Virus record (IMG/VR): IMGVR_UViG_3300048598_000287
Span: 192,001-256,000 of that record
Direction: 5' to 3' (one strand)
From: a virus
Taxonomy: Duplodnaviria > Caudoviricetes
DNA length: 64,000 nucleotides
Under the pieces are notes generated by a model. That model ran no database searches. It saw only the letters and a program-made list of their open reading frames with translations, and was not told the DNA's origin. The position numbers and the translations under genes are program-made. Of the stretch, positions 4,707 through 28,549 are shown one piece after another. Position 1 is the first letter of the stretch. Every line of letters begins with the position of its first letter.

Positions 4707-4922
4707 ATGAACGAACATTTGCAGACATATAATGGAATTCCTGTTTTTGACGTTCCGATAGGGGATTTTCTGATGGTGATTGATGCCGAAGCCAATGGAA
4801 AACGGCTTTTGTCAAAAAACTTATCAGATGAATCATTGCGCGCGTTTTATATAGCGGAAAGAAAGCCTGCATTTTATGTGATCTTTGGCGGAGTAAGGGT
4901 AAGATACCCTAAAAAGGAGTGA
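4707..4922 (+). CDS. Small hypothetical late protein
   Basis: Lies between TATAAACTA (4665) and the portal gene. Confidence 0.55.
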   Translation: MNEHLQTYNGIPVFDVPIGDFLMVIDAEANGKRLLSKNLSDESLRAFYIAERKPAFYVIFGGVRVRYPKKE

Positions 4923-6690: not shown

Positions 6691-6790
6691 AATTTCAATG
6701 CAGATTTTTGCCATATTTTTTTGCTGCGTAAATAGCTCAATAAACTTAAAGTAGAAACCAAGAACAGCGCCAGTGTGCGCAAGGTATATT

Positions 6791-12791: not shown

Positions 12792-12876
12792 ATATACCTC
12801 TCTATTTATGTTATTAGACGCCGTATGATATTCTTTGAATGCACATAATTCAATGATTCTATAAGAAGTCTAATAA

Positions 12877-13026
12877 CATGATACAGAAAATATAATGAAT
12901 CAATGGAATATATGCAAGACTGGAAGTTAATAAAGATATAATTTATATGAAGGATATAAACTATTAATATGATTGTCCTATCGACACAACATACACTCAA
13001 GTTCGCTAATGCAAGAAAGCAGGATG
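12877..13026 (+). repeat. tnpB-like element 5' end, copy 1 (contains late promoter and first 19 codons)
   Basis: Gap-free 150 bp match to the reverse complement of 24878-25027, with about 20 mismatches counted by eye. Confidence 0.9.
12955..12963 (+). promoter_or_regulatory. Late promoter motif TATAAACTA in tnpB-like end
   Basis: 5 nt before ATG 12969. Confidence 0.7.
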
Positions 13027-13565
13027 AAATTCTCATCCTGCTGTCTGAATGGCGCAGAGTGATGCAGCTGATCTGTGACGACCTGTGGAGTAACGGATAC
13101 TGCTGGATGGAAGACGGATGCATCCATGAGTTCAATGTACGCAAATTCAAGCTCTCATTACCTAAATACCTGGACTACAACCGTTTCAGCATAGACACGT
13201 GGCTAAGCGGACGTATGCTCAGTTAATTGGTCACGTGGCTAAGCGGACGTATGCTCAGTTCATTGGTCACGCAGCTAAGCGGCAAGCTCCGTGCAATGCT
13301 AAGCAAGCAGTCGGCGCGGATATATGTATTTGACAGGCTATGCGGACAGGGCGAATACAGCGAACGGCTCTGGGCAAAGATAGAAGAATCGATGCCGAAG
13401 AAGCCGGATTTAAGTGATGCGGGAATAGAGATCAGCTCTAAATGCGCGGATTTCATGGAAACGCCCGGTGGAAAGTTCTACGGATACGTCAGGATCAAAT
13501 CTACGGGACGAGAACACGTCAGGATTCCCATCTGCAGGCATTCCAGGCTGAAGAAATACACGGAC
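12969..13565 (+). pseudogene. tnpB: TnpB/Cas12f-like RNA-guided nuclease, N-terminal remnant
   Basis: STQHTLKFANARK...TWLSGRMLS...KPDLS...GYVRIKSTG..VRIPI resembles the N-termini of phage-borne TnpB-like proteins (recalled, not searched). In-frame TAA at 13224-13226; no RuvC or Zn-ribbon half; runs into a GC-rich repeat. Confidence 0.6.
13196..13283 (+). repeat. 36 bp tandem duplication inside tnpB remnant
   Basis: cacgtggctaagcggacgtatgctcagtt(a/c)attggt twice, plus a partial third unit. Confidence 0.95.
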
Positions 13566-13737
13566 GGAACCCGGGAACGCCCGGAAAGGTGACGATGTGC
13601 TCAAACGTTCCCGGAGGCTCATTGCACCGGCCCCGCGGGAAATGTAGATTAGACACGCGGAGCGGTGCCGGATCCGCCCGGGGTCGCTGGGCGATGAACC
13701 TCGGGATCTTGCGCCGCAGGTTAGCTAGTCGTTAGGC
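13562..13737 (-). repeat. GC-rich imperfect palindrome, partial attC-like site (copy A)
   Basis: Starts GCCTAAC (RYYYAAC) on the minus strand and has an internal hairpin. Roughly 80% identical, inverted, to 18680-18827. No matching L'/R' end seen. Confidence 0.5.
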
Positions 13738-13856
13738 GAACAAAAAATAAAGCCAGAAAACGCCATTCCTAATATCAAAACAGTCCAGTCGTCCATGACT
13801 GGGCAATATGCATCAGGAGCCCATATTTGCCAAAAAAAATGTATATTTTAAGTAAC

Positions 13857-15509
13857 ATGATAGCTAATATAAACGAACACAAAAGTCGCATAGCGAAGCA
13901 CATCAAGGATAACGGGGTTTATTACACACCTGACAATCTTGCTGACTTTGTTGCACGCGCAGTTTGGAGGAATATTGGAAATCATAAAGTCGGCACCGTA
14001 TTTGATCCTGCTGTAGGCGAAGGGAGCTTATTGAAGGCATTGTTTAAGTATGCCCCAAATAAGACCATTAGTTACAAAGGTTCAGATATAGATCAAGATG
14101 CTATTCAATCATGTATTACGAATGAGGCATTTGGTAGTGAGTTTAAATTTTCAGTTAAAGATTTTGTAGAATCAATTGACCAATCATTTGGCCTGTTTCA
14201 AGATATTAATGTTGAATATTCTGATGTTATAATTATGAACCCGCCTTATGTAAGAACTCAGAATCTTTCAAATGAAAAAATTAAGACTGTTGCAAAAGAG
14301 CTAGGATTAACAGGGCGTGTTGATTTAGCACATGTATTTATTGCTGGTTCTGCACGGTTTTTGCGAGCAGGTGGAATACTTGCTGTAATTACTTCGAATA
14401 AATTTATGCAAACTCTTGCAGGAGAGGGTCTTCGAATCGTCATAAAGAATGAATTTGAAATCTGTGAAGTCTGGGACTTTGGAGATACAAAACTATTTGG
14501 CGCGGCGGTTCTTCCAATGGTTATGGTTTTGCGAAAGAAACCATGCGAAAATGGACAGGGTGAATTTTATTCTTGTTATAAATGTAATGAAAATCAAAAC
14601 AGGAATTTACCAGTCGAAAACGACAGTCTAATTAATGAACTTATTAGCGCGGGCTTTACTATCAACTGCGGTTCATTACTTAATGGAGCTAGCGAAAATC
14701 GTAAAGTCTGGGTATCTTCAGATGAACAAACAAATAAGTTTCTTGATTCAGTGAAAAAGAATTGCTGGAGAACATTTGGAGATGTATCAAAAATATCTGT
14801 TGGAATCAAGACAACTGCCGATGATGTATTTATCAAGCAAAACTGGAATAGCTTTATACCAAGACCAGAGCTACTTAAACCGCTAGTGACACATGAAGTG
14901 GCTGGAAATATTTATCCTTCCGATATCCAGTCAACCCGCTCCGTATTGTACACACATGAACGTGATGGCGCAAAAAAAAGACCTGTAGATCTTTCTCTAT
15001 ATCCAATCTCTAAAAAATTCCTAGAATCCAATAGAGCACGCCTTGAATCTAGAGATTATATAAAGAAAGCAGGTAGACTTTGGTATGAAATTTGGGTGCC
15101 ACAGGATCCAGCAGTATGGTCAAAGCAAAAAATCGTATTTCGTGAAATTTCAGAGTTGCCACAATTTTGGCTTGATAATAGTGGCTCTGTTGTAAATGGC
15201 GATTGCTATTGGATTGCATTTGATGAATCTGCTCATCCAGATCTTATTTGGTTAATGCTTGGAATTGCCAATTCTGCATTCATTGTTAAATATTACGATG
15301 TTGTATTTAATAATAAAATATATGCTAATCGTAGGCGATTTATGGCTCAATATGTTCAAACATTTCCAATACCAAATCCTGAATCAAAAAGCTCTAAGGC
15401 CATTATTGATTTAGTCAAAGTGATTTTCAACGATAGACTTCCTCAAGAGTCTTGGGCTCATAAGTTAGATACACTTGTTAATAAATCATTCGGATTAGAT
15501 AAATCCTGA
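13857..15509 (+). CDS. Type II N6-adenine DNA methyltransferase (gamma class, TaqI/Eco57I-like), intact
   Basis: GVYYTP, FDPAVGEG (motif I), MNPPY (motif IV), and a C-terminal TaqI_C-like region (KIVFREISE). Confidence 0.9.
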   Translation: MIANINEHKSRIAKHIKDNGVYYTPDNLADFVARAVWRNIGNHKVGTVFDPAVGEGSLLKALFKYAPNKTISYKGSDIDQDAIQSCITNEAFGSEFKFSVKDFVESIDQSFGLFQDINVEYSDVIIMNPPYVRTQNLSNEKIKTVAKELGLTGRVDLAHVFIAGSARFLRAGGILAVITSNKFMQTLAGEGLRIVIKNEFEICEVWDFGDTKLFGAAVLPMVMVLRKKPCENGQGEFYSCYKCNENQNRNLPVENDSLINELISAGFTINCGSLLNGASENRKVWVSSDEQTNKFLDSVKKNCWRTFGDVSKISVGIKTTADDVFIKQNWNSFIPRPELLKPLVTHEVAGNIYPSDIQSTRSVLYTHERDGAKKRPVDLSLYPISKKFLESNRARLESRDYIKKAGRLWYEIWVPQDPAVWSKQKIVFREISELPQFWLDNSGSVVNGDCYWIAFDESAHPDLIWLMLGIANSAFIVKYYDVVFNNKIYANRRRFMAQYVQTFPIPNPESKSSKAIIDLVKVIFNDRLPQESWAHKLDTLVNKSFGLDKS

Positions 15510-16104
15510 TGGTATTGGTATTTGTAGCTTTGTATTCTTGACCTTTCCTTCAAATCGAGGAAAGAACTTAAAGAACTCTTTACCAGAGCACAAATAGTAA
15601 TTTTCAATAGTTAGGCTATCCTCAAGAATTGATGCGTAAATAATGAGGTAGCGAACCATATACGCAAGATAGGGTGTTTTCCAAGCAGCATCAATTACAA
15701 AATCCTCATCAGGCTGATGGAGCCCCAAATCAATTGTTGGAGATGTTTGAAGCTTAATCTCTAAAAGTTGATTTGGGATATCTGGAAACTGACCACTATC
15801 TTGCCCAATTTCATAGCAAAGTAAGCGACAAATCTTTTCATGAAGATAATATCCTCTATTTCGATCATCGGTCATTCCTCCATAAGGAAATTGCATTAAG
15901 AGCAGAGGCTTGAGTTGCTGGCCAATCTCATCAATTGTTAATAGTGTTCTCGGGATTGGTTCGTCTAAGCACGATGCTTGAGAATTAAATTTAAGAGATG
16001 TTCCTTTTGGCCTTACTTCAAAACTATCAGAAGAAAGTATACGAGATGTAAGTTGCTTAGGCTCTAGTCTTGCTTGATATTTATGTGTAAGTGTTCCAGT
16101 TTTA
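15495..16104 (-). pseudogene. Putative cognate restriction endonuclease, 5'-truncated by IS256
   Basis: Convergent with the MTase; GQFPDIPNQLLEIKLQ fits a PD-(D/E)xK motif. The frame stays open upstream of ATG 15896 (KTGTLTHKYQAR...) right up to the IS end at 16105. Confidence 0.7.
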
Positions 16105-17449
16105 GATAATGCAACCCTTTTTTCTGTAAATTTATTTCTTCACTTTCTTCATCGCTTTGGGGTTTAAGTAAATCTTACCATCAGTCCATTCGTCGTTTTG
16201 CTCCATAAGTAGAGCACCAACAAGCCTTAGACATGATTCATCATTAGGGAATATCCCTACGACACGGGTTCTACGACGTATTTCTTTGTTCAGTCTCTCT
16301 AAACAGTTGCTAGTCCTGATCTTGCGCCATGCATCCTGTTTGAAGGCATAGAAAGTCATTCCGTCTTCATAGTTCGCTTCTAGCCAAGAGCTGAAATCGG
16401 AGGCCCGCTTGCGGTACTGCCCTATTATTTTCTTGGCCACGGCTCTGGCTTGTTCGAGGGTCTCTTGTCCATAGATACGGCGCATGGCTTCGCCTATCTC
16501 TTTGCGCATGTCGTTTCTTGGCACCCTGTTCTGGGCGTCTTGTGCCATATGGAAAAGGCATCGTTGCCAAGGGACTGATGGAAATACTGCTTTGCGGGCA
16601 TTACGAAGTCCTGCGTGATCATCGCTTATAATCAACTCCATTCCTGTAAGACCCCTACCGGTTAATGACTCTAAGAATTGTCTCCAGTTTGTTTCGGCTT
16701 CACTGCTAGAAGTGTCTACACCTAAAATCTCTCGCTGGCCCTTCGCATTGAGTCCAACTGCGATCAGTATGGCCCGATCGCATACTTGACCGTCCTTGCG
16801 TACTTTCTGATATTGAGCGTCCAGCCATACGACTTGCATGGGGCCCAGTTCTCGGCTCCTGAATTTCTGCACCTCCGCATCAAGGCCCTGCGCTGCCTTG
16901 GAGACCTGGGATGAGCTTATTTCAAGCCCGCAGAGTTTCTCCAGTATCCTTGTGACCTTTCGGGTCGATACGCCTTGCACATACATTTCTGCCAGAGCTA
17001 AGCGTAACGCCTTTTCAGATCTTGTGGCTGCCTCTAAAGACTTGGGATAAAACCCACTTTCTCGGGTTTGCGGAATGTCTAAGGCTACTTTTCCTAAACC
17101 TGTCGTTATTGATCGAGGTTTAAACCCATTAGCATAGTCCATACGCTCATCAGTACGCTCATAGGGTTGTGCTTTCAGGTAGCTTGATCGTTCCACTTTC
17201 ATTGCCTCATTCATCATAATCCGAAATAAGTCGAGGATTGCATCAGGGCCTCGCTCCACAAGCATGTTTAAAATGTCTGCGGAATTTGTATATTCAGCAT
17301 TGGAGTTCTTCATCTGTTTTCCTTTAGTTGAAGTTTGTCGTAATTCCAAAACTAAAAGAATTGAAGGACTCCATCTGGCCCTTCCCCAATCACCGTAGGG
17401 TGACTTGGTGGAGGGGCTGATGAATTTACAGAAAAAAATTTACACTATC
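16105..17449 (-). mobile_element. IS256-family insertion sequence (1345 bp)
   Basis: Imperfect terminal IRs (gataatgcaac...ttctgtaaat / gatagtgtaaa...ttctgtaaat) around a transposase gene; flanks show no target-site duplication. Confidence 0.92.
16132..17349 (-). CDS. IS256-family DDE transposase
   Basis: AEMYVQGVSTRKV, WLDA, ISDDHAGL, WQRCLFH and TSNCLERLNKEIRRRTRVVGIFPN motifs. Confidence 0.95.
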   Translation of the reverse strand: MELRQTSTKGKQMKNSNAEYTNSADILNMLVERGPDAILDLFRIMMNEAMKVERSSYLKAQPYERTDERMDYANGFKPRSITTGLGKVALDIPQTRESGFYPKSLEAATRSEKALRLALAEMYVQGVSTRKVTRILEKLCGLEISSSQVSKAAQGLDAEVQKFRSRELGPMQVVWLDAQYQKVRKDGQVCDRAILIAVGLNAKGQREILGVDTSSSEAETNWRQFLESLTGRGLTGMELIISDDHAGLRNARKAVFPSVPWQRCLFHMAQDAQNRVPRNDMRKEIGEAMRRIYGQETLEQARAVAKKIIGQYRKRASDFSSWLEANYEDGMTFYAFKQDAWRKIRTSNCLERLNKEIRRRTRVVGIFPNDESCLRLVGALLMEQNDEWTDGKIYLNPKAMKKVKK

Positions 17450-17850
17450 GAATCTTCGGCAGAGACGTAGTTGATTTCGAATTCGTTGACACCGAAAGAA
17501 TGGATGATGTTTTTTAGTTCCGAAATCAGTTTCTGCTCAATGTAAGTCCTGGCATTTTTGCGAAGCTTGTCACGCTGATTCTTGTTACTTTGGGTTATAC
17601 CGAAAAAAGATTTGTCAATGGCAATGTCGATATCTTCGGAAAAGCGTCGAATGAGCTTCCATCCTTTGCTGAGGGATGTTCCTCCTTTGAACGAAAAGGA
17701 TCCTTTGCAGGAGGACAAGGAAAGAGCCTTGAGAAGGGTGGTCACCCACCAGTCTTTTTCGATGATTGTGTCACTGACACCGGTTTTCTCCGAGGCTTGC
17801 TCGAGAAGTGTCCTTTTTTCGGAGAGGGTGTATTTGCTCCATGAACTCAT
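17450..17850 (-). pseudogene. AbiEii/AbiGii-family nucleotidyltransferase toxin, 3'-truncated by IS256
   Basis: IEKDWWV and FKGGTSLSKGWKLIRRFSEDID motifs; only about 134 codons precede the IS terminus. Confidence 0.85.
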
Positions 17851-18458
17851 GTCAAGGCTCCTTTGACTGTGCAGCGCATCCACGTCGGCATTAAAAGGAT
17901 GTCTTTTTCAAAGGATTTTTCTTTGGAGCAGGCTAAAACGAGTTCTATTATCCTTGCACGTTGTTTTTCGGAAATATCATTTTCTCCGATTTCCTTGAGT
18001 GCAAGCATAAGCAGTAGCATTCTCTTGTCATTGAACAGAGCGTATTTCGCGGTTTGTCGCTTTAAGATAATGCTTCTTTTGCCAATTTTGATAGTTCTTG
18101 ACGATCCGGTGGTGACGAATTCTTCTTTTGTCGGAACCTGGTCGGAAAGGCCGAGAGCGTTTGCCGCGGTGACCCCAGCAGGAACAATGTCGACTTTGTC
18201 CCTTTCGGCAATTGCATATGCGATTTCTTCAAGGGATGGGAATTCTGTCCCGAAACGATTTTTTTTCGGATACAAGTAAACGCCGCCATATAGACGAATG
18301 AGATCTCCGCCCTTTGCCATTCTCGAAAAGGCTCGGGTTATGGCGGATTCCTCGCCAATGGAAGCGTAGTCCTTGACACAATGAATCTTGCCTCGGCCTT
18401 TGGCCTTGATGACTTCCTGAAGTTTTTTTGTCAGGTCTTTTTGCATGTTTTTATTCAC
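17847..18458 (-). CDS. DUF6088/AbiEi-like type IV antitoxin, intact
   Basis: N-terminal wHTH-like region (AFSRMAKGGDLIRLYGGVY) and AANALGLSDQVP motif; overlaps the start of the AbiEii gene. Confidence 0.8.
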   Translation of the reverse strand: MNKNMQKDLTKKLQEVIKAKGRGKIHCVKDYASIGEESAITRAFSRMAKGGDLIRLYGGVYLYPKKNRFGTEFPSLEEIAYAIAERDKVDIVPAGVTAANALGLSDQVPTKEEFVTTGSSRTIKIGKRSIILKRQTAKYALFNDKRMLLLMLALKEIGENDISEKQRARIIELVLACSKEKSFEKDILLMPTWMRCTVKGALT

Positions 18459-18497
18459 CCTTATGTCCGAAATTTAGTAAAAAAATCAGACATAAGG
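18459..18497. promoter_or_regulatory. Inverted repeat, candidate AbiE autorepression operator
   Basis: ccttatgtc...gacataagg immediately upstream of the antitoxin start; AbiEi proteins are known to bind promoter IRs. Confidence 0.5.
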
Positions 18498-18676
18498 AAA
18501 TCTCGCCATAAATAACTATCATATTCTGTTTTTGAATTTAACATTCATTTTAAATTCCCGCTTAAACATTTTTCCCACTTATGTTATTATAGTACCTTTT
18601 CCTTTCTCCATTGGTGTAAAAATAAATTTTCTCACCTTTTTCCCCAGTTGTGCTATCATATTCTACGCTATTATAA

Positions 18677-18827
18677 TCATAACGACTAACTAACTCACAG
18701 CGCAGGATCCCGAAGAAGTCCATCGCCTAACGCCCCCGGGCGGATCCGAGCCAGCTCCGCGTTCCAAATCTACATTTTTTGCGGAACCGGTCCAATGAGC
18801 TTCCGGGAACGTAAGAGCCCATTGTCA
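18677..18827 (+). repeat. GC-rich partial attC-like site (copy B)
   Basis: Begins tcaTAACgactaactaac; inverted homolog of 13590-13734; merges into the DHH gene. Confidence 0.5.
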
Positions 18828-19450
18828 GGCAGGTCCTTTATGTCAAGGGAAGAATATTCTTTATCCAGGTCTATGGCATGCTGCTTAAGCCATTCGGATT
18901 CTTCGGGTGTCATTTCAGTATGTCCGTCAGAATATGCCTGTATCCATGAGTCGAAAGTATATTTTTCCTTGAACAGTTCAGTTATTTCCTGCGCCTTCGC
19001 AAATCTTGGATCATTTTTCTGCCACCGATCAAACACGTCCACATATCCGATAAGTACAGAAAGATGGATAAGGTCAAAATGCGCCTTGAAAAAATCATAG
19101 CATAGCATAGCTCCGCACTTTGATGTATCTATGATGATTCCATTGGCCGGATCATTATATTTCATAGCCGTGGGGTGATGGTCAAGGACAAGTATAGGAA
19201 GTCCGGTGCCACGAAGTATCCCCATTATCTTTTCAGGATAATAATCAGATGCGATTATACAGTCATATCCATCGGATATGGCAGGAATCTGTTCGCCTAC
19301 GCTTTCTTCTACATACCCATACCGCATTTCAATATACGTTATGTCATGATATACATTCTTCAGAACTAGATGCGATGCAGCGCCGTCCAAATCATAATGG
19401 GTAAGGTTAAGCACTTTAAGCGTAGGATTTTAAAAATATTCAAGATTCAT
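18813..19450 (-). pseudogene. DHH-family phosphoesterase pseudogene
   Basis: THYDLDG and LDHH motifs. In-frame ATG 19450 is followed by TAA at codon 7 (MNLEYF*NPTLKVLNLTH). The 3' end is replaced by repeat copy B and no DHHA1 region is present. Confidence 0.75.
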
Positions 19451-19500
19451 ATGTTTGTCCTATTGGGTTTTGAATGGATGAAAGGGAACTATATAATTTT

Positions 19501-19878
19501 CTAACGAAGGCATTCACATTTTTTAAGTGCATCTGATATCTCCTCACGGTCGGCAAGAGATGCTGAATCGGGAAGATGATCGAGTACGAAATCAATATAT
19601 GTATGCATTGATTCACATTTTGATTGATCATCCATATTTGTGTCAATTTGTTCTTCCAGGTCATCAATGTGGCCATCGATATCGCTAAGGCATTCCTTGA
19701 TGGATACTGCATCAAGCTGATTAACGATTTCGGTAAGCAGATCGGTAACCTGTTTCATTGTATATGTAGAACCCGGATCCGTTTTAGCAATCTGGGACAT
19801 CTTTTCAGACAGCAGTCGGCTCGTGTTGTCTATATATTCTTCGGCATCATCGGTATGTACTGCTAAATAATGATACAT
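19501..19878 (-). CDS. Hypothetical protein (125 aa, acidic)
   Basis: ATG after AAGGA; co-oriented with neighbours. Confidence 0.65.
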   Translation of the reverse strand: MYHYLAVHTDDAEEYIDNTSRLLSEKMSQIAKTDPGSTYTMKQVTDLLTEIVNQLDAVSIKECLSDIDGHIDDLEEQIDTNMDDQSKCESMHTYIDFVLDHLPDSASLADREEISDALKKCECLR

Positions 19879-19914
19879 ATGAATCCTTTTTTGAATGGGT
19901 ATCCGTTAATATAG

Positions 19915-19944
19915 AAATACATAGCCACGAGTGGCTATGTATTT
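19915..19944. terminator. Hairpin / probable terminator
   Basis: aaatacatagccac-ga-gtggctatgtattt, a perfect inverted repeat. Confidence 0.55.
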
Positions 19945-19956
19945 AAATTAAACGCA

Positions 19957-20271
19957 TCATCGCTTTGCAAATTTTGTCATCTTATCGCAAATCGTGCATA
20001 TAAGCTTGACATCATCAACGCGCATATGGCTAAGTTCTTTAATGCCAGATATGGCGTCTACGTTTTTCTTAAGTTCTTTCATGGTCTCATCGGCATCAAG
20101 CGTAACTCCGCTCAACTTAGCTGATTCAAACAATGCATCGATGAGTCCGGAGGATTTAAGCACCGCCATCCTACGATCACTGTCCCATATATCATCATTT
20201 TCTGATGAAGTTGTATTGCTAGACGTATTCCTAGAAAAGAATGCGTCTATTATTGATTTTATTATGGTCAT
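19957..20271 (-). CDS. Hypothetical protein (104 aa)
   Basis: ATG after AAGGAG. Confidence 0.65.
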   Translation of the reverse strand: MTIIKSIIDAFFSRNTSSNTTSSENDDIWDSDRRMAVLKSSGLIDALFESAKLSGVTLDADETMKELKKNVDAISGIKELSHMRVDDVKLICTICDKMTKFAKR

Positions 20272-20283
20272 TTTATCATCTCC

Positions 20284-22086
20284 TTATGGTTTAATGAAAT
20301 TTCTTAATATTATGCAATTCGGAATTTTCTGAATATCCGTATTATCGGCGCGCGTGTCACTTATACTCTTGCTATCGACTCTGTCATAATAATTGCATTC
20401 TTTATTATCCGGTTCGTTTACCGTCAATGGCATTACGCGTTGACTATCGGCGGCAACTTTCTTCCTTATATGCTCCATGGCGGCGCATAGGAATTTTTCG
20501 AATCTTTTTGATAGCTCGGTTGTTTTATCAAATGCATCGTAGCATTGGAAAACCGGGGATTTTTTATCCGATTCGGTGAAAAAATCAAAATTAACTTCAG
20601 CGCATACAGTTTTCCAATTGAAAAACATGGATTTCCTATTTATGAGGGATCCAAGGCAATGGTGAAATTTCACCACATATGCCCTCATCTGAAAGGTAGT
20701 CTTTATACGGAAATGTTCAATATACCACGGCATTTTATATGGGCATTTCATTATGTCATCATTAGGTATTATATTAAGTGCAGATTCGGCCATCGCCCTT
20801 TCATGTATTTCAGAACATTGCTTTAAAACAGTTTTCGCCGTCTTTCCTGAAGGAATGCATAATGGTATCTTTCCGTCGAGTTCCTTTATTATAGTTAACG
20901 CATCATTTAGATATGTATTAAAATCATGGATAAGCCCTAGCCGTATATGATATTCAGTTGTATCTTTTGAGTCTGGCTTAAAAAATTCAAACATTGATAA
21001 AAATGCACGTTTATCAGTAGATATTTTGATAAGGATTTCGGATATTGTTTGCCGGTTTAATTCAGTCATACGGTAATATTCAGCATCAACAGGCTCATCC
21101 GCAGCCTCCATACTATCATCTATGTCCGTATCCTCCATGATATCGTGCTGGTTACCATGGATTTTTCCTAAATTTTCATATGCTGAATTGATGATAAGCC
21201 GTGAATCATTGTTCAAAGCCCTGCATGTTCCCGTAGCATTTGCTTCCGATGTGAACGGTATGTTAAGAAAATTTTTACAATAGTATATAGATGGGATTTT
21301 GAGAAGATACCTGGATGTTGCTGGTTTACATAATACAGTGTCATATGAATCAGAAGAACAATATTTATGCGGGTTTTCATCAGGTAAAGAAGACGTCAAC
21401 TTATATGTCCATTGTTCCATGGTATCAAAGAAAAGAACATATTTAGGAAACTTTCTGTTCATCTTCTGAAAAATATTCTTTATTTTCTTATTTACTGCTG
21501 CACGAGAAGAACATTCTTTAACATCTATTGCTGTATTATTAATACGGCAGATCAGGACGCCAAAATTAGGTTCCGAATGTTTAGAAATATCTGCTAAAAG
21601 CTGCATCCCGCAATCCGATAGCATTGCCAATTTAATAATGTTCTCTTCAAGCCAATAATGAGTCATATATGACGCATTGATGTTCATTGACCTAGCGCGA
21701 GAAAGTATTTCCTGTATACGGGCAATCATTAAACTGTCAATGCCTAGCCAAGGTGCATATTTATCGATGATGAGCCTTTTAGCTGAATCAGATAATACAT
21801 ATTCATAGATATCATTATTGTCACTGGAATCAGTATGACAATTTATTCTTAGCGGATCGTTATATTTCACATCAATATATGTCCGGTATTTATCGCAGGC
21901 AAAAAATAGTCGCATGTTATCATCAGACATGTTGCAGTCTACATAATCAGAAACGCACAAGATTTTATTTGCATTTAAAGCAGGAGCATCAGAGGCATTT
22001 ATGAAATCAGACCAGTGTAAATAAAATGTTCCATTTGATATACTATCTTTGCTATAACGCATTTGGCATCCTGTATTTGCTTCCAT
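20284..22086 (-). CDS. Hypothetical protein (600 aa), weak PcfJ-like C-terminus
   Basis: Long ORF; FHHCLGS resembles the PcfJ HHCV motif, weakly. Confidence 0.6.
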   Translation of the reverse strand: MEANTGCQMRYSKDSISNGTFYLHWSDFINASDAPALNANKILCVSDYVDCNMSDDNMRLFFACDKYRTYIDVKYNDPLRINCHTDSSDNNDIYEYVLSDSAKRLIIDKYAPWLGIDSLMIARIQEILSRARSMNINASYMTHYWLEENIIKLAMLSDCGMQLLADISKHSEPNFGVLICRINNTAIDVKECSSRAAVNKKIKNIFQKMNRKFPKYVLFFDTMEQWTYKLTSSLPDENPHKYCSSDSYDTVLCKPATSRYLLKIPSIYYCKNFLNIPFTSEANATGTCRALNNDSRLIINSAYENLGKIHGNQHDIMEDTDIDDSMEAADEPVDAEYYRMTELNRQTISEILIKISTDKRAFLSMFEFFKPDSKDTTEYHIRLGLIHDFNTYLNDALTIIKELDGKIPLCIPSGKTAKTVLKQCSEIHERAMAESALNIIPNDDIMKCPYKMPWYIEHFRIKTTFQMRAYVVKFHHCLGSLINRKSMFFNWKTVCAEVNFDFFTESDKKSPVFQCYDAFDKTTELSKRFEKFLCAAMEHIRKKVAADSQRVMPLTVNEPDNKECNYYDRVDSKSISDTRADNTDIQKIPNCIILRNFIKP

Positions 22087-22186
22087 ATATTCTTTTGCTA
22101 AAGTTCATCAGTAATTCTTTAATATAGTAAAAAATAACCGTTATGTCAATGCTATTTTAAAAAATCGCCTGATGTTCCGAATTCCA
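21999..22186. repeat. Direct repeat copy 1 (188 bp)
   Basis: Matches 25023-25207 with 5 substitutions and 2 small indels. Confidence 0.95.
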
Positions 22187-24935
22187 CTTTGGGGAGGGCA
22201 TCGACGATGTCCATGGTTTTGATGCTTAGGTCGATGACAGAAAGGAGGGTGTCGAGGATGTAGCGGGGGTTTTGGTGTTCTTTTGCCCAGTCGTTGCAGT
22301 CGTTTGTGATTAGGCTCGCTTTGTCCTGGGTGACGGCATAGCGCTCGACTATCCAATCGATGGCGGATTTACCGTTTACGATGTAATCGTAGGCACGGGC
22401 GGGAATGTTTTCAATGGTGATCTGAGGGTTGTAGAGAATCTTGAATTTGTCGGACTTGCCTGCGAAGCGCATTTTGTCAGGAATGCGGAAATACTTGTAG
22501 TCTTCAGGGGTGCCGCTTGCGCTTTTGTCCCCTGCGATGTTTATGCCGAGTTTTTTGGCGAGCGCCCTGGCCTCGGCGGTGGATTTCTCATAATTCAGAT
22601 GGAGACCGGCTAGGGCGCGGCCCGCTTTTTCAAAGGCGGCGAAATCTTCGTAGCCGGAGACGAAAATGATTTTCGGGAGCGATTTCTTGAGGTCGTCTTT
22701 GAAAGTTTCCCGGTAGTCCTTGCTGTGGAGGAACCCGTAGACGTAATAGAAGATGTTTTCTTTGGTGATTTTTTTGTTTGCACCGTAGATGCGTCTGGCT
22801 TCAGCTAGAGCCCAGTTGGAGACCCCGTCTTTCCTTTCAAGTTCCTGTGCAAAGAGGTCGCCTTTATTTTGTTCCGAATAGTAATGGAACGGGAAACATT
22901 GACTTTTCCCTATGAGTTCAAGGTCAGGAAGAGTATTTGAAATGATACAGGAAAAATCTTTGGTTACGCCAATTCCAGAAACGCAGATGACGAGGTTTTG
23001 CGTATCGGGGGTGGGGAAAAGACGAGGGCTAAGGCCAAAGCACTCTATTAAATCATTTTGAGCATATAAATTTTGTTTTTGAAAGGGTCGATAAGATCCC
23101 AATCTTACAAAATCATCGGAATATTCAATATTTTTTCCATTGACTAGTGATTTTTTTAGTCCGCGTGTCCAACTTATTTTTGTTGGATCACTGCTGAGAA
23201 TGTCTTCCAGTTTCTTTCCTGATTTTACTGCTTTTTTATATAATTCCCGCTGAGAATTGTAGAAATCTACACATGATTTCATATTCTTTTGCAGGTTTTT
23301 CTCCGAGAATGAATAAACCCAAGAATCTCTATTTGTAGCCACACCAATAGCATTTGTTTCAAACAAACTTTTTGTTCCCGTGTCAAATTTCTTTTCAGGA
23401 GCAAGTGGTGTTAGCGTATCAAATACGCCGCCACGTTGGTTGATCCAGTCGGCTTTTTCGTTGGGTGTAATTTGTTCCCACTTTATATGTTGAATGGATA
23501 CAGCTTCTTTCAATATTTCCAGTTTACGCTCCCGGGTCAGGTAGTCGCCGATGTCGTGGTAATGGATTTCGCAGGGCCGCCCTTTCTTCGCGGGATTGTA
23601 AACGAGGAAGGTGATGGTCACGGGAGTACGGCTGCCGCTCCCGAATATTTTGCCGCCTTCTTTCCTTGAAAGTTCTCCGCTCGTCCGCTGGTTCCCTCGT
23701 AGGTTGAGTACCCAGATGCCCGTGAACTCTTCGACCAGACATTTCCGCATACCGTCCTGCCCGTTGCCGTCCAACCAGCCGCCATTGGAGATAAAGGCGA
23801 CGATGCCGCCTTCCTTGTTCTTTTGAATGCGGTCGCTTGCAAAACGGAATGCCTTGATATAGGAATCGTAAAGGGATTTTTTCAGGTTTGCGGTGGATTT
23901 CGCGGCATAGCTATCTTCAACCCTGGCGTCCAATACAGGGTAGCTTAAATTCTGGGCGTTGTCGTTTGCGCTTTTTTGCCCTACGGAATAGGGCGGGTTC
24001 CCGATTATCACGCGGACAGGAATTCTACGCTGCCGTTCCACTTCCCTGTAGTTGTCATCAAAGTAGCCATCCAGCTTCGCCGCCTCCTGGCTGCTTCCGT
24101 CATCGCTTTCCGCCGTCTGGAAGGTATCGGTCAGGCAGATTCCGTTAAAGGGCAGGTATGCGGCCGACTTGTTCAAATCGTGGTAGACGCTTTCGATGTT
24201 CACGTCGGCAATGTAATAGGCGAGCAGCACGATTTCATTCGCGTGGAGTTCCTTTTTGTATTTGCGCTCCATGTCCTCCTTTTGAATGAGTCCGCTCTGA
24301 AGGAGCCTCGTGATGAACGTGCCCGTTCCCGTGAACGGATCCATGATGTGAACGTCGCGGTTCGTCAGATCGGTTTTGAATTCATCGTGCAGAAGAATAT
24401 TCACGGAATGGATGATAAAGTCAACGCACTCGATCGGCGTATAGACTATGCCCAGTTTTTCAACCGTGGTCGGGAACGCGGATTTGAAGAACTTTTCGTA
24501 GAGTTCCTTGATGACTTTCTGCTTGCCTTCGAGGTTATCGAGCTGTCCGACGTTTGTGCGCACGGAGGTATAGAATTTTTCCAGTTCCCCGGCCTCTTCG
24601 TTCACGCCCTGCTTCTGGAGTTCCCTGATGACGCGGGCCATGGTACGCGATATGGAATTGTTGTCGACGAACTTGTAGTCGGCGAACAGGGCGTCGAATA
24701 CAGGCTGCGTGATCATGTGCTGGGCGAGCATCTGCACCGCGTCGTTTTCGGTCACGGAATTGTTGATGTTCTTCCGGAGCGCCGCCAGATATTTTTCAAA
24801 GAGCTGCTTTGTCCGGCTGTTCTGCTCCGCTCGCAGGTAGTCAATCCGGGCGATGTATTTCTTCGCGATGACGCCGACATCCTGCTTTCTTGCATTCGCA
24901 AAATTGATCGTATGATTTGTTGAACGGGCCATCAT
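22152..24935 (-). CDS. Chimeric orphan methyltransferase: tnpB-like N-terminus, type ISP MTase/TRD, and tail of the neighbouring phage gene
   Basis: GIVYTP, DPFTGTGTF, IIGNPPY, KSQCFP, YVYGFLHS and YIVNGKSAIDW are type ISP (LlaGI/LlaBIII-like) C-terminal motifs; no nuclease or helicase domains. Starts MMARSTNHTINFANARKQD and ends EFGTSGDFLK. Confidence 0.88.
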   Translation of the reverse strand: MMARSTNHTINFANARKQDVGVIAKKYIARIDYLRAEQNSRTKQLFEKYLAALRKNINNSVTENDAVQMLAQHMITQPVFDALFADYKFVDNNSISRTMARVIRELQKQGVNEEAGELEKFYTSVRTNVGQLDNLEGKQKVIKELYEKFFKSAFPTTVEKLGIVYTPIECVDFIIHSVNILLHDEFKTDLTNRDVHIMDPFTGTGTFITRLLQSGLIQKEDMERKYKKELHANEIVLLAYYIADVNIESVYHDLNKSAAYLPFNGICLTDTFQTAESDDGSSQEAAKLDGYFDDNYREVERQRRIPVRVIIGNPPYSVGQKSANDNAQNLSYPVLDARVEDSYAAKSTANLKKSLYDSYIKAFRFASDRIQKNKEGGIVAFISNGGWLDGNGQDGMRKCLVEEFTGIWVLNLRGNQRTSGELSRKEGGKIFGSGSRTPVTITFLVYNPAKKGRPCEIHYHDIGDYLTRERKLEILKEAVSIQHIKWEQITPNEKADWINQRGGVFDTLTPLAPEKKFDTGTKSLFETNAIGVATNRDSWVYSFSEKNLQKNMKSCVDFYNSQRELYKKAVKSGKKLEDILSSDPTKISWTRGLKKSLVNGKNIEYSDDFVRLGSYRPFQKQNLYAQNDLIECFGLSPRLFPTPDTQNLVICVSGIGVTKDFSCIISNTLPDLELIGKSQCFPFHYYSEQNKGDLFAQELERKDGVSNWALAEARRIYGANKKITKENIFYYVYGFLHSKDYRETFKDDLKKSLPKIIFVSGYEDFAAFEKAGRALAGLHLNYEKSTAEARALAKKLGINIAGDKSASGTPEDYKYFRIPDKMRFAGKSDKFKILYNPQITIENIPARAYDYIVNGKSAIDWIVERYAVTQDKASLITNDCNDWAKEHQNPRYILDTLLSVIDLSIKTMDIVDALPKVEFGTSGDFLK

Positions 24936-25027
24936 ATAAATAGTTTATATCCTTCATATAAATTATATCTTTATTAACTTACACTCTTGCATATATTCCA
25001 TCAATTTACTATATTTTCTGTATTATG
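24878..25027 (-). repeat. tnpB-like element 5' end, copy 2
   Basis: Homolog of 12877-13026; contains TATAAACTA and the ATG of the chimeric MTase. Confidence 0.9.
24941..24949 (-). promoter_or_regulatory. Late promoter motif TATAAACTA upstream of chimeric MTase
   Basis: 5 nt before ATG 24935. Confidence 0.7.
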
Positions 25028-25207
25028 AAATCAGACCAGCGTAAATAAAATGTTCCATTTGATATGCTATCTTTGCTATAACGCATTTGCATCCTGTATT
25101 TGCTTCCATATATTCTTTTGCTAAAGCTCATCAGTAATTCTTTAATATAGAAAAATAACCGTTATGCCAATGCTATTTTAAAAAATCACCTGATGTTCCG
25201 AATTCCA
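25023..25207. repeat. Direct repeat copy 2 (185 bp)
   Basis: Contains the 3' end of gene 25173-26699, the intergenic region, and a frameshifted 5' stub of gene 20284-22086. Confidence 0.95.
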
Positions 25208-26699
25208 TCCGTTCCTCTTCGGTAAATGTAGGAATTTCAATATTTGAAAGGGCGTCGTCAAAAATTTTCTTAGCTGCTGAAGCATATCGTTCATCTACGA
25301 TAATGCTGTCATGAACGGTGCAGACAGGACAATGTAAGTTATTTTTAATATTTTTGTAAACTATTCCAAATACAAGATGGCTTTCTGTACGTTGAAGTTC
25401 ATGCGCCAAAGCTGTATGATTTTTATATTTAATTAGCTGTATTACCTTATAAAGAGAAGGAAACTCTGCTTTCCATATATATTGAATGGCTTTAACGAGC
25501 CGATGCTTCTTGTGAGAGAAGAACGGTCCGCAGAAAAGGCATGTGAGAAATTCTTTCTTGACTTCAGAACGGTCGCATGAAAGACACATAGAATCATTAA
25601 GAAAAGAAAGAAAATGTTCATAAAGAGAACCAGAAACAAGAAGTGAACGATAGGAAGAGAGGTCAGAGTGGAAAGTTTTAATGAAAGAAGAAGTAAATAA
25701 AGTGGAATAATGTGAGTAATCAAATTTCATATCTATATATGAATCCACAATATGTTCTCGCCCGTCATAATGTGATATGAAGTTATCGAACACCTTGTAT
25801 AGAAAAGCTCCCTGAGAACTTTTAATGTCAATTCCCACAGTTGGACGTCCATCACATAATATACAGTTTTTTCTGACTTCTTTTTTTATCTGCGTTATGT
25901 TTGTATGGACTCGTCCATATGCGTCTCTTTTGCAATATATAGAATATGGATCATTGACATATCCGTCAAATGCGTCAACCTTGTGCAATTCTTCAGACAT
26001 TCGTTCGGCTGATATCTTATTTTTTGATACCATATCTGATAATATTCGATGGCTTTTATCTTTATCTATTGAAAAATGCTGTAAATCTTCATATAGTTCC
26101 CTGATTTGTGGAAGACTCATCTGTTCTTTCTTTACTTCTTCTGCATGAAGCGAAAGCCTTCTATAAAGTCTTGGATTTGAAATTTTAATTACCCGGACTC
26201 CGCCCTGCCTTTTTGGAATGTCGCCTGATGTCTCCTGATTTTTTGTAATCAGATATCTATGGACATATAACAGGAAATCTGAAGTGAACCAATAGTGCTT
26301 ACATTTTCCTTTCACTTCTTTCGTACCTTTTATATATGAGTCGCTTCTACCGATGATGCCCATTTGTATAAGGATTTTTACATATTTTAGATAGTTAGAT
26401 CCTATTATTCGATTGTATATGCGTGAATATATAGGAACCGCCCATCGTGTAAGATCTATAGGCCATCCATGTTTCATTGCTATGTTGAATGCTATCTGAT
26501 ATCGTCGATATATCGTATTTATGATGTACAGAAGGTATTCATAGTTTTCCGCTATGCTTCCAGATAGCTCATTATTGGTTTGCATATATTCAAATATACG
26601 GTTAGGCACAAGCATCTTGTCGAAAGTGTATAAGCTGTCCGACTCTGCGAAGTGGTCTAGTACGTTTATTGAAGAAAATGCGTTTTTTGTCATCGCCAT
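25173..26699 (-). CDS. Divergent family-A polymerase-like protein
   Basis: YGRVH, GIDIKSSQ (motif A-like), RSEVKK (motif B-like), LQRTES and TVHDSI (motif C-like) in the expected order; no exonuclease motifs seen; start uncertain. Confidence 0.55.
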   Translation of the reverse strand: MAMTKNAFSSINVLDHFAESDSLYTFDKMLVPNRIFEYMQTNNELSGSIAENYEYLLYIINTIYRRYQIAFNIAMKHGWPIDLTRWAVPIYSRIYNRIIGSNYLKYVKILIQMGIIGRSDSYIKGTKEVKGKCKHYWFTSDFLLYVHRYLITKNQETSGDIPKRQGGVRVIKISNPRLYRRLSLHAEEVKKEQMSLPQIRELYEDLQHFSIDKDKSHRILSDMVSKNKISAERMSEELHKVDAFDGYVNDPYSIYCKRDAYGRVHTNITQIKKEVRKNCILCDGRPTVGIDIKSSQGAFLYKVFDNFISHYDGREHIVDSYIDMKFDYSHYSTLFTSSFIKTFHSDLSSYRSLLVSGSLYEHFLSFLNDSMCLSCDRSEVKKEFLTCLFCGPFFSHKKHRLVKAIQYIWKAEFPSLYKVIQLIKYKNHTALAHELQRTESHLVFGIVYKNIKNNLHCPVCTVHDSIIVDERYASAAKKIFDDALSNIEIPTFTEEERMEFGTSGDFLK

Positions 26700-26827
26700 A
26701 CAATATACATTTTTCTGAATCATTTTTGGCAAAATTCATGAAAAATGGCAGTTATGCTCATTAAAAACGTATTTTAATGGTGCAGAGCACCTTGGTAAGG
26801 AAATGCTAATGGTTTCGGAGATAACAG

Positions 26828-28549
26828 ATGAACGCATATTTTGATTTTTTAGAAGGAAATTCGTCGGTTGTGACCGTTTCCGGAGGAAGTGACACGGCAA
26901 TGCGTCGCGTATATAGTTTTATGAACGGGGCCATAAAGTATCATGACAAGCAGGCCGAATATAGCGATGAATATAAATATGGTTTCGGAGATAATTTTGT
27001 TAATTTTTATGATAGAAAAACCAATTCGCTGCCAATAGGACTTATTCCGAGATTATGTTCTCTTATAAAGGGACAGTTTCCTGATATTACGATAGGGCTT
27101 TCTCCTCGCATCCGTTCGATGTTCACCCCTCCGGTTCACCTTAGCAACGAAGACATACTTAAGTATGCAGATACGCTTAATATACATGACCGTAAGAGTG
27201 GACACGCGATGTCTCTTTATGATCATCAGCTTAAGCTAATATATGAGGCGATGAATCATAGAAGAGGATCATTGAAGGCGTGCACATCGGCAGGTAAATC
27301 ATTGGCCATGTATGTCATGACAAGATATTTGAATGAAGTCGAGCATAGGAAAGTACTGATCGTAGTTCCTAATCAGGGTCTGGTACTTCAGCTTTACAAT
27401 AATTTTTATGACGATTATGGCTGGGATGATGCTGGAAATACATGCACGCTTATATACAGTGATTCCAAGGATAAGGTCACCGCTGCTAAAAAGAAGAAGC
27501 TGGCTGAGCTTAACATGGGAGAACAGGCGATGCTTAAGCCGGTGACTATTTCCACATGGCAGAGTCTTCAGCATAAAGAGCCGGAGTTTTTCAAATCATT
27601 TCAGGCAGTCATAGTGGACGAGGCGCACGGTACCAGGGGAATTAAACTACGGACGATACTTGATTTATGTATTAACGCAGATAATTTCAAGATAGGCGTG
27701 TCCGGAACGCTTCCTGATGATGGTCTTGACGCAGGATATATAGAATCATCATTAGGTAAAAAATACGACATAGTGAATCTTAATGAATTGGTCGAGAAAG
27801 GACTGCTTACTCCTGTTAAGGTGGTCGCTCTTTTTGTGCCTTATCCTGTGGATTGCCGCCCTATGATATGTTATTCCAAGTTCGATGAAGAATACTCCAT
27901 CGTTACTGGAAACCGTAGCCGGCTTGACATAATGGACATGCTTATCGGAAGCGGAAAAATAACGACATCGCAGAACACCGTTATACTTTTCAGAAACATA
28001 ACTCCTCTTGAGACGATGCTGTCTTATTTATCTGAAACACATCCGGAATTCAAATATCATGTGATAAAGGGAGAAATAAAGGCGTCTGAAAGAGAGTCCA
28101 TAAGGAACATGATGGAAGACAGTTCTGGAAATATACTCATCGGTACATATGGATGCCTACAGGCCGGGATGAACATAAAGAATCTGGATAATCTGGTTTT
28201 CGGAGATCCTGGAAAGTCAATGTATATGATTTGCCAATCGATAGGAAGAATTGTGCGGAAGAATTTTGGAAAAGAGGTGGCTACTTGCTATGATATAGTT
28301 GATGATGCATCCTATCTAGTTCATGGACGTAAAAGAGGAAATTACATGAGGCAAAACTGCATGGTAAGGCATTTTGGAGAGCGGATGAAATATTACGAGA
28401 ACGACCATATTCCGGTTACTACGGTTGATCTTTCCGGGATTGTAGATGCCGATATAAAAATAGATGACATAAAGAAAAAGCGGAAGGAAAAGGCCGATAG
28501 GAAAGGCAAAAAACCCAATAAAATGAAAGGATACCGTAGGCAGTTTTAA
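26828..28549 (+). CDS. uvsW: SF2 DNA helicase, UvsW-like
   Basis: CTSAGKS, ISTWQSL, VDEAH, SGT and QSIGR motifs. Confidence 0.88.
   Translation: MNAYFDFLEGNSSVVTVSGGSDTAMRRVYSFMNGAIKYHDKQAEYSDEYKYGFGDNFVNFYDRKTNSLPIGLIPRLCSLIKGQFPDITIGLSPRIRSMFTPPVHLSNEDILKYADTLNIHDRKSGHAMSLYDHQLKLIYEAMNHRRGSLKACTSAGKSLAMYVMTRYLNEVEHRKVLIVVPNQGLVLQLYNNFYDDYGWDDAGNTCTLIYSDSKDKVTAAKKKKLAELNMGEQAMLKPVTISTWQSLQHKEPEFFKSFQAVIVDEAHGTRGIKLRTILDLCINADNFKIGVSGTLPDDGLDAGYIESSLGKKYDIVNLNELVEKGLLTPVKVVALFVPYPVDCRPMICYSKFDEEYSIVTGNRSRLDIMDMLIGSGKITTSQNTVILFRNITPLETMLSYLSETHPEFKYHVIKGEIKASERESIRNMMEDSSGNILIGTYGCLQAGMNIKNLDNLVFGDPGKSMYMICQSIGRIVRKNFGKEVATCYDIVDDASYLVHGRKRGNYMRQNCMVRHFGERMKYYENDHIPVTTVDLSGIVDADIKIDDIKKKRKEKADRKGKKPNKMKGYRRQF

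Follow-up and report, generated by a model that had tools for sequence, protein, structure and literature searches.

Type ISP enzymes are single polypeptides, and LlaGI and LlaBIII are examples with entries in the PDB. The coupler, the methyltransferase (MTase) and the target-recognition domain (TRD) of LlaGI have been treated as one structural unit (PMC4872093). Phage theft of host methylases to escape restriction is already an established principle. A precedent for the acquisition of host methylase domains is lactococcal phage phi-50, which carries the amino domain of LlaI, a methylase of plasmid pTR2030 (cited in PMC4190342). In phi-50 and the 936-type phages, a lytic phage carries a methylase or methylase domain derived from a host restriction-modification system, without the nuclease and presumably for self-protection (PMC4190342).

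The locus described here is of the same kind but differs in several respects. Its source was a Type ISP enzyme, a single polypeptide that was truncated at the coupler. A phage tnpB supplied the start and the promoter, a phage gene supplied the stop, and both a duplication of 185 bp of the target and strains with the empty site have been preserved. Among sequenced phages, an ISP-like MTase-TRD is a great rarity, with 2 in 50,697 records. We consider it probable that the gene encodes an orphan N6-adenine MTase acting in anti-restriction, whose coupler, MTase and TRD were captured from a bacterial Type ISP gene by microhomology-guided joining.

Phage record and surroundings of the cassette

The window, that is, the whole stretch of 64,000 nucleotides analysed, is part of a 277-kb virus contig (the full record, 66% complete). 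Genes of Gp23 and the T4 portal are located inside the window and identify the phage as T4-like; the host phage of the chimera is a large T4-like (jumbo) phage. A block of about 3 kb with about 51% GC is enclosed by a direct repeat of 188/185 bp and contains one ORF of 927 amino acids (22152–24935, minus strand; P0001). The higher GC content of the MTase block noted in the first-pass annotation was confirmed: it is 49–54% in the block versus 29–39% in the flanks, apart from a dip to 35–38% at about 22850–23400. The features of the locus are summarized in Table 1.

The MTase shares the window with T4-like capsid and portal genes, and no cognate nuclease adjoins it: the flanking genes A and B contain no nuclease or any other family. 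The helicase gene (26828–28549) adjacent to the cassette region is a conserved phage gene that cassette-free relatives have as well. No family was matched by an Rfam scan of positions 12500–27000. It should be mentioned that foreign or broken genes accumulate in this region, namely a truncated AbiEii, an IS256, a degraded tnpB and an MTase that is split in some strains.

The record derives from a metagenome assembly, and repeats and a GC jump are located at the borders of the block, as would be expected if phage and bacterial reads had been joined at the repeat into a chimeric contig. However, the same chimera was found at the same place, with identical junctions, in independent assemblies (ENA, Logan and JGI) from different samples and in contigs of up to 170 kb, and the junctions are in frame within a continuous ORF. 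The probability of such an artefact is negligible.

Table 1. Coordinates of the features of the chimeric MTase locus (positions in the window)
Feature	Position	Strand	Description
Methyltransferase codons 1–19	24879..24935	-	From tnpB start
Methyltransferase codons 20–920	22176..24878	-	Coupler, gamma-class N6-adenine MTase and target-recognition domain; bacterial Type ISP origin
tnpB-derived 5′ region	24936..25036	-	Element left end and promoter-like TATAAACTA
Degraded tnpB copy 2	12868..13580	+	Closest in-window relative of the methyltransferase 5′ part
Upstream repeat copy	25023..25207	-	Gene A last 11 codons and stop, intergenic spacer, gene B 5′ stub
Downstream repeat copy	21999..22186	-	Methyltransferase last 7–10 codons and stop, spacer, intact gene B start
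Gene A	25173..26732	-	Conserved phage gene; donor of C-terminal tail, stop codon and downstream spacer
Gene B	20284..22086	-	Lineage-specific ORFan; 5′ end duplicated by insertion
Polymorphic patch in methyltransferase	22551..22839	-	289 bp; two haplotypes, 39 nt and 10 amino acids apart

Organization of the methyltransferase

P0001 consists of three parts. Its N-terminal 19 residues correspond to the beginning of a tnpB-like ORF at 12969 (plus strand), and gene A ends with the same 10 residues as P0001, EFGTSGDFLK. Between them, Pfam detects ISP_coupler at residues 18–136 (PF22240, 5.5e-40), N6_Mtase/Eco57I at 140–406 (PF02384/PF07669) and Type_ISP_C at 524–895 (PF18135, 2.9e-105). The catalytic motifs DPFTGTGTF and NPPY are intact. 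The ORF, the Pfam matches and the matches of both termini bear out the earlier description of an in-frame chimera of a tnpB start, a Type ISP part and a gene A tail.

Residues 17–919 are homologous to LlaGI and LlaBIII (E values of 4.5e-207 and 1.2e-187), and the coupler, the gamma-class N6-adenine MTase and the Type ISP C-terminal TRD are common to these enzymes and P0001. In contrast to them, P0001 has foreign N- and C-termini, is located on a phage, and has neither the Mrr nuclease nor the SF2 ATPase; in the closest full-length relative, which carries Mrr_cat_2, these two make up about 630 residues at the N-terminus. Pfam found no nuclease family and no ResIII, DEAD, Helicase_C or TNB domain in P0001. 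Because the nuclease and the ATPase are missing, P0001 cannot restrict.

The breakpoints were mapped by alignment with the closest full-length Type ISP protein, as the first-pass annotation had proposed. Residues 18–920 of P0001 align to residues 630–1534 of this 1535-residue protein with 80% identity. The alignment shows an ISP part cut at the start of the coupler, with the native 3′ end kept to the last two codons. This best donor match, 80% identical in amino acids, is only 75% identical in nucleotides. In species-representative genomes, the best match had 56% identity (Prevotella and Bacteroidales MAGs).

Bacterial stand-alone ORFs having the coupler, the MTase and the TRD (858–994 residues) resemble P0001 in domain set and length. 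All 12 homologues shorter than 1000 residues begin inside or just before the coupler, at varied starts, and nine of them, BLAST-aligned to near their own end, stop 0–4 residues from P0001 residue 915–920. Unlike P0001, these ORFs lack the tnpB-derived start and the TSGDFLK tail; bacterial homologues natively having the termini of the chimera, named earlier as grounds for rejecting the capture, were not found. Most of the stand-alone ORFs may be pieces left by genes that were broken or split.

The AlphaFold2 model of P0001, built from a 30-sequence alignment, had a mean pLDDT of 60.7, with values below 50 for residues 1–18, residues 920–927 and much else, and was of too low quality to be informative. 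A role of the EFGTSGDFLK tail as a sliding-clamp-binding motif was considered but is not supported: a search whose PF02916 control was uninformative detected no gp45-type clamp family in the 277 kb of this 66% complete record. The tail is not conserved in gene A homologues of 62% identity.

The tnpB-derived start and its promoter-like motif

The tnpB-derived part of the cassette amounts to 159 nt and comprises the left end, the promoter-like motif and 19 codons. It is 86% identical to window positions 12868–13026 (plus strand) and 82% identical to genome positions 97313–97477 (minus strand). Compared with TnpB, an IS200/IS605-associated RNA-guided nuclease, the cassette retains no more than the initial 19 codons and 101 nt upstream; the RuvC/TNB domain and the right end are missing, and no RNA was matched in Rfam. 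The intact tnpB copy of the phage encodes a Cas12f1-like TNB domain. The left boundary of the homology is the same in all three copies, including the cassette. In every contig inspected, the intact copy and its neighbour had the same surroundings. The left-end pattern was absent from viral_contigs, and searches of viral_contigs and genome_contigs for relatives of TnpB and of gene A found none; as a result, the limits of the tnpB element cannot be defined from other insertions.

The TATAAACTA motif is located at 24941–24949, 6 nt before the ATG of the MTase, and occurs 12 times in the window versus 0.76 expected. The genome has 45 occurrences of the pattern TATAAACT, of which 35 immediately precede ORFs, among them a tail-sheath-stabiliser gene and a lysozyme-domain gene. 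The proposal of late expression agrees with a motif that also precedes genes of structural type, but it fits less well with the spacing, which is usually 24–28 nt from the ATG. Because of the 6-nt spacing, the timing and even the use of the MTase start are presumptive.

Truncated tnpB 5′ fragments that share one left end are abutted by two independent foreign blocks. One is the ISP MTase at 24878; the other, at 13590, is an island that is bounded by a 145-bp inverted repeat and carries an Eco57I-like MTase. Copy 2 of tnpB is cut off at 13580, beside this second island. It is conceivable, as a rather speculative idea, that resident tnpB genes are capture platforms: breaks there would seed acquisition of host defence DNA by template switching, and the left end, which provides a late-type promoter and a start codon, would express the captured protective half.

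The direct repeat and genes A and B

The two copies of the direct repeat (188 and 185 nt) are 95.7% identical and are the only ones in the 277-kb record. In the global alignment they differ by five substitutions, all of which are transitions, and two indels of 2 nt and 1 nt, in exact agreement with the earlier count of five transitions and two indels in a repeat of about 185 bp. A sigma-70-like promoter is located at 22121–22149, in the spacer of the downstream copy.

Homologues of gene A (27–63% identity) are syntenic beside the helicase in T4-like contigs, and gene A has no Pfam, PHROG or named Atlas family. The start of gene B has a 1-nt deletion in the upstream repeat copy and is intact in the downstream copy. 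This deletion had been taken to leave a frameshifted stub of gene B upstream. The deletion is present, but if the second ATG (22062) is the true start, it falls in the leader and the frame of the stub is unaffected. Strain L009 has ATA in place of the first ATG of gene B, and the second ATG is the start chosen by gene callers. The statement that the event rescued an interrupted phage gene is literally true, but the gene in question is lineage-specific and frequently split in carrier strains. In exact look-ups, neither the 600-residue nor the 592-residue form of gene B was on record.

Joins of the chimera

The 3′ join is within an 11-nt stretch, TGGAATTCGGA (22176–22186), that is common to gene A and the ISP part. 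Native Type ISP homologues end with GA(T/G)TTCGGAGAG followed by the stop codon. The microhomology described previously for this join is supported. A search for inverted repeats, which terminate a classical transposon, found none at the cassette ends, and no transposase is located within the cassette. The duplication is 185–188 bp, versus 2–15 bp for the target-site duplication of a classical transposon.

The third join, between gene B and tnpB, is at the very boundary where the homology of the other two tnpB copies begins. This join may be an old element-insertion junction and not a microhomology join; an earlier insertion of the element, whose 3′ part was then replaced, would explain its position no less well than a third template switch. 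If it is such a junction, the cassette might have been formed in two steps, in which tnpB transposed into gene B, and a later break inside tnpB was repaired from a host ISP gene and then from a sister genome at the tail of gene A. By this route, tnpB from codon 20 to its end would have been replaced and the 185-bp duplication made, and the function would likewise be that of an anti-restriction MTase. A boundary common to the other copies is unexpected for a random template switch, and foreign DNA also adjoins another truncated tnpB 5′ fragment, which shares this left end. On the other hand, the first 14 nt at the boundary are of the gene B version, GTCTGATTTCATAA, and not of the element version, GTCTAATAACATGA, and the match of 10 of 14 nt between them resembles a microhomology join. 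Furthermore, no strain with a full tnpB at the cassette site was found, and the intact tnpB stays at its one place, with no relatives found elsewhere. The two-step route seems possible but is on balance unlikely, and joining by template switching is preferred below.

Comparison of strains

Strains that are about 99% identical are polymorphic for the cassette: it is present in at least nine contigs, and three contigs (L018, L024 and L025), located via exact-protein look-ups of gene A, have an intact empty site and encode an identical gene A protein. An exact-pattern search for the empty site in IMG/VR and JGI metagenomes found nothing. Across eight strains, the cassette has two singleton SNPs in about 2.4 kb, whereas the flanks differ by 0.6–1.2%. 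Between the window and one other carrier (L008), 29 of 4900 nt differ on the left and 18 of 1480 on the right, but none of 2368 in the cassette. Since the cassette is near-invariant while the flanks differ, a recent single capture followed by spread through recombination is suggested; the cassette probably moves among co-infecting strains by homologous recombination via its flanks.

The upstream repeat copy is 100% identical among all carrier strains, and the repeat variants form a mosaic pattern across strains, which means that recombination acts on the repeats. An open frame despite repeat divergence had been taken as a sign of selection. This argument is weak: with almost no SNPs in the cassette and diverged flanks, the divergence of the repeats reflects standing polymorphism and recombination between copies and between strains, and not age.

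Excision through the repeats, also suggested earlier, is possible, and empty-site strains exist. However, their haplotype is of the downstream-copy type at all three sites specific to the upstream copy, which fits the ancestral site at least as well. The same haplotype bears on a Campbell-type event, in which a circle carrying the cassette and one 185-bp copy was integrated by a single crossover and the reverse crossover excises it as a mobile module. Flanking direct repeats are the expected product of such an event, and the presence/absence polymorphism and the mosaic variants are consistent with it. The lack of all three upstream-specific variants in the empty sites would, however, confine the crossover to the first 19 nt or so; a circle junction was not observed, and two illegitimate joins would be needed beforehand anyway, so that the extra step explains nothing more. 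We regard this event as improbable.

The ORF is intact (925–927 residues) in full-length cluster members. Comparison of the two haplotypes of the polymorphic patch shows what is apparently a gene-conversion tract from another ISP homologue, and the cassette seems to keep exchanging sequence with host ISP genes. The change is mostly synonymous, since the 39 nucleotide differences cause only 10 amino-acid changes. From the open ORF in full-length copies, the frequent splitting of gene B and the mostly synonymous patch, the function of the MTase appears to be maintained. A neutral fragment of host DNA, hitch-hiking in the phage and open by chance, would have no anti-restriction role; the gathering of foreign and broken genes described above is what such a remnant would predict. 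Against it, a frame of 2.8 kb is open in every full-length copy while gene B decays, the catalytic motifs and the 3′ end are complete, the cut coincides precisely with a domain boundary, most changes in the conversion patch are synonymous, and the near-zero diversity of the cassette against diverged flanks resembles a sweep. A neutral remnant is thus very improbable.

Proposed capture route and function

In the preferred reading, the nuclease and the ATPase motor of the Type ISP gene would have been left behind at capture. The captured fragment, which came without its own start, would be transcribed and translated from the left end of the resident tnpB, using the TATAAACTA motif and the first 19 codons, and it terminates in the last seven codons, the stop codon and the spacer of gene A. 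The joins were probably made by illegitimate, microhomology-guided joining, in which the microhomology proposed earlier for the 5′ join (ggatg) is a candidate. The likeliest route would be template switching during recombination-dependent replication. With the return join placed 185 bp upstream of where the switch began, this stretch would have been duplicated.

The enzyme is predicted, from its domains and motifs, to methylate one strand of an asymmetric site on the phage DNA. Hosts having a Type ISP enzyme, or another enzyme, of the same specificity would then no longer restrict the phage.

Biological significance

Because phage capture of host methylases is established, the value of this locus is in the mechanism and the example, and not in a new concept. 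The natural record that it preserves of a lytic phage converting a host defence gene into a gene of predicted counter-defence function is unusually complete: all three parents of the chimera are identifiable, at least one microhomology join is readable, and sister strains retain the empty site. A recent sweep is indicated by how little the cassette varies. The Type ISP coupler, MTase and TRD can persist together as a stand-alone gene, and P0001 is a candidate route by which phages may escape Type ISP restriction.

Composition of the chimeric gene

The direct repeat, the open reading frame and its three-part make-up, as described in the first-pass annotation, were all borne out. The two repeat copies enclose a foreign block of about 3 kb (the cassette); they differ by five transitions and two indels and occur nowhere else in the record. 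P0001, the chimeric methyltransferase (MTase) of 927 aa, begins with 19 tnpB-like residues, and its last decapeptide is the same as that of gene A, which flanks the cassette on the upstream side of the minus strand. The GC content rises from about 33–37% outside to about 51% inside the block.

Pfam assigns a coupler, an N6-adenine MTase and a Type ISP C-terminal domain to P0001, and detected no nuclease or helicase domain. The DPFTGTGTF and NPPY motifs are uninterrupted. The closest match among 5.8 billion proteins is a full-length Type ISP enzyme of 1535 aa (80% identity), of which residues 630–1534 align with residues 18–920 of P0001; LlaGI and LlaBIII match residues 17–919. This means that the fragment spans from the first coupler residues to one or two codons short of the native stop. 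It corresponds to the coupler-MTase-TRD unit, which the study of the LlaGI structure (PMC4872093) handled as a single body.

It should be mentioned that the variable core of the TRD (22850–23400) has a GC content of 35–38%, inside a gene of otherwise 50–54% GC. This core shares only 54% identity with the closest full-length ISP enzyme but 76% with another fragment. The GC content and the identities suggest that the specificity region was swapped earlier, in the donor lineage.

The three joins

In two close homologous genes, the native ISP 3' end reads ...(D/E)FGE-stop, encoded by GA(T/G)TTCGGAGAG, and other ISP homologues stop at about the same point. Judged against these native ends, the 3' crossover lies inside TGGAATTCGGA (22176–22186), the cassette having GTGGAATTCGGAACA and gene A ATGGAATTCGGAACA. 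In other words, this is a microhomology join, and the foreign part at the C-terminus of P0001 is confined to TSGDFLK and the stop. A clamp-binding role of this tail found no support. At the 5' join, tnpB codon 19 (...AAGCAGGATG) is followed directly by the ISP coupler (TCGGCG). Some homologues have (R/K)DVG at this position, so that a few bases common to both parents are plausible here. The best nucleotide match to a possible donor reaches 75% identity.

The tnpB homology of the cassette (25036–24878) begins where the homology between the intact and the degraded tnpB copy begins. In the first 14 nt at the gene B–tnpB boundary, the cassette has the gene B version, which matches the element version at 10 of 14 positions. 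Either a switch at a microhomology or an earlier insertion of the element, which left a scar, could explain this join. A two-step route, in which tnpB was inserted first, is a rival explanation of the cassette; no other insertion site of this tnpB was found in the sequence collections searched.

The joins would be products of template switching in which the return fell 185 bp upstream of the point of departure; such a return leaves a duplication, not a deletion. Campbell-type integration of a circle is a further rival route. T4 has recombination-dependent replication, and by analogy template switching is likely in this T4-like phage.

Strain comparison

The comparison of strains was the most informative part of the analysis. 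The chimera cluster at 90% contains 20 sequences, and its full-length members (925–927 aa) are 97–100% identical and have the same context. They come from several projects, on contigs of up to 170 kb, which excludes an assembly error. Exact-protein look-ups of gene A gave carrier contigs and, in addition, three contigs without the cassette (L018, L024 and L025), in which gene B begins 184 nt after gene A. The empty site is thus preserved intact, and the cassette is polymorphic for presence and absence. The empty-site haplotype is of the downstream-copy type: none of the three changes confined to the upstream copy is present. Between the two copies of the window, several further differences correspond to polymorphisms also segregating in the downstream copies and empty sites; therefore, the repeat divergence is not a clock.

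By flank distance, the empty-site strains fall among the carriers, with 3–9 differences per 4.9 kb to L008, L020 and L023, against 28–29 to the window. Beyond 22840, on the upstream side, the cassette shows two singleton SNPs in about 2.4 kb among eight strains. Between the window and L008, no difference is found in 2368 nt of the cassette, whereas the left flank has 29 in 4900 nt and the right flank 18 in 1480 nt; about 17 cassette differences would be expected at the flank rate. This near-invariant cassette between differing flanks indicates that it arose once and recently, and that homologous recombination carried it across strain backgrounds. The pattern is compatible with positive selection.

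In the MTase, a 289-bp tract (22551–22839) occurs as two haplotypes, 39 nt but only 10 aa apart, in cassettes that are otherwise identical. It is a gene-conversion tract from a diverged, functional ISP homologue, presumably a host ISP gene.

Gene B, on the downstream side, is a lineage ORFan of 600 aa with only one distant homologue among 5.8 billion proteins. In contrast to the cassette ORF, several carrier strains have it in two pieces or in a shorter form (454+149, 261+335, 236+327 and 548 aa; loci including L019 and L020). In L009, ATA replaces its first ATG, so that translation probably begins at the second one (22062).

Expression signals

A promoter-like 9-mer, TATAAACTA, lies in the tnpB-derived leader, 6 nt before the ATG of P0001, a distance at which the transcript would have almost no leader. 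The window contains 12 copies of the 9-mer (0.76 expected), and TTTTCTTCCGCAAATCTTA often stands ahead of it. For the 8-mer core, TATAAACT, the genome has 45 sites, of which 35 are just upstream of ORFs, usually 24–28 nt before the ATG. Two of ten tested motif-preceded genes have PHROG names, a tail sheath stabiliser and a lysozyme-domain protein, both virion-type. The late promoter of T4 is TATAAATA, and the likeness of TATAAACTA to it makes late expression of P0001 plausible.

The same arrangement is found ahead of both tnpB copies and of a divergent tnpB paralogue near 46.7 kb of the genome. These resident paralogues have a conserved promoter/start module in common. The divergent tnpB-like gene (genome about 46400–46780, minus strand, outside the window) starts with MMEAIRQIDLKVNARKTDK... 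and is preceded by GGATATAAATTATATAAATGATGG.

The downstream repeat copy provides the stop of the MTase and restores the gene B spacer with a sigma-70-like promoter. In this strain and L009, the promoter in the downstream copy (22121–22149) is near-perfect, TTGACA-17-TATATT. The upstream copy (25142–25170), L007, L008 and the empty sites have TTGGCA in place of TTGACA.

Genomic neighbourhood

The window covers bases 192001–256000 of an IMG/VR virus record of 277 kb, which has a GC content of 41%. More distant relatives have the order 963-aa gene, helicase, gene A, DHH, MFS, NUDIX and Gp23. In this phage, the interval between gene A and MFS is occupied by accessory and foreign DNA: the cassette, gene B with two small ORFs, a shortened DHH gene, AbiEi/AbiEii pieces, an IS256-family transposase, an Eco57I-like MTase and a degraded tnpB.

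Features of the window and of the tnpB copies (window positions unless marked genome)
Feature	Position	Strand	Remark
T4-type portal	4919-6625		within window
T4-type major capsid protein	6773-8284		within window
Degraded tnpB	12868-13580	+	
Second foreign island	13590-18827		~145-bp inverted repeats at both ends
Island inverted repeats	13590-13734 / 18680-18827		about 80% complementary
Eco57I/TaqI_C-type MTase	13827-15509		in second island
133-aa ORF			in second island; no family
IS256-family transposase	16132-17349		in second island
AbiEii/AbiEi-like pieces	17440-18458		in second island
DHH-family gene	18770-19414		214 aa; 325-327 aa in related phages
Gene B	20284-22086	-	
Downstream repeat copy	21999-22186		
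P0001	22152-24935	-	927 aa
Upstream repeat copy	25023-25207		
Gene A	25173-26732	-	
Intact tnpB	genome 96072-97477		
TATAAACTA sites	3332, 4665, 8402, 12955, 24941, 31464, 45894, 45938, 49662, 51362, 61412, 61447		

At its 3' end, the DHH gene runs into the right-hand inverted repeat of the second island, so that it appears to have been truncated by insertion of the island. In L007 and L018, the segment 13730–15773 and the IS256 gene (aligned from 16105) are inverted and joined to 19402. The degraded tnpB, truncated to a 5' fragment, shares its left end with the tnpB part of the cassette and stops 10 nt before the second island. Because this is the second such fragment beside foreign DNA, tnpB elements might act as platforms on which foreign DNA is captured and expressed; two cases make this no more than a lead, and a rather improbable one.

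Function and comparison with known captures

A stand-alone MTase of the Type ISP kind would hemimethylate an asymmetric site and thereby protect the DNA of the phage against enzymes that share its specificity. Anti-restriction capture of a host methylase by a phage is of a known kind, with phi-50/LlaI and the MTases of 936-type phages as precedents (PMC4190342). Few sequenced phages have an ISP-like MTase-TRD (2 of 50,697 GenBank records, both 11-kb Listeria entries). Compared with the known captures, several aspects are new. The captured part comes from a Type ISP enzyme, a single polypeptide, that was cut at the coupler, and the gene derives from three parents, with the promoter and start of tnpB. 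Furthermore, a 185-bp duplication was left and the empty site is preserved, and exchange with host ISP genes seems to be continuing.
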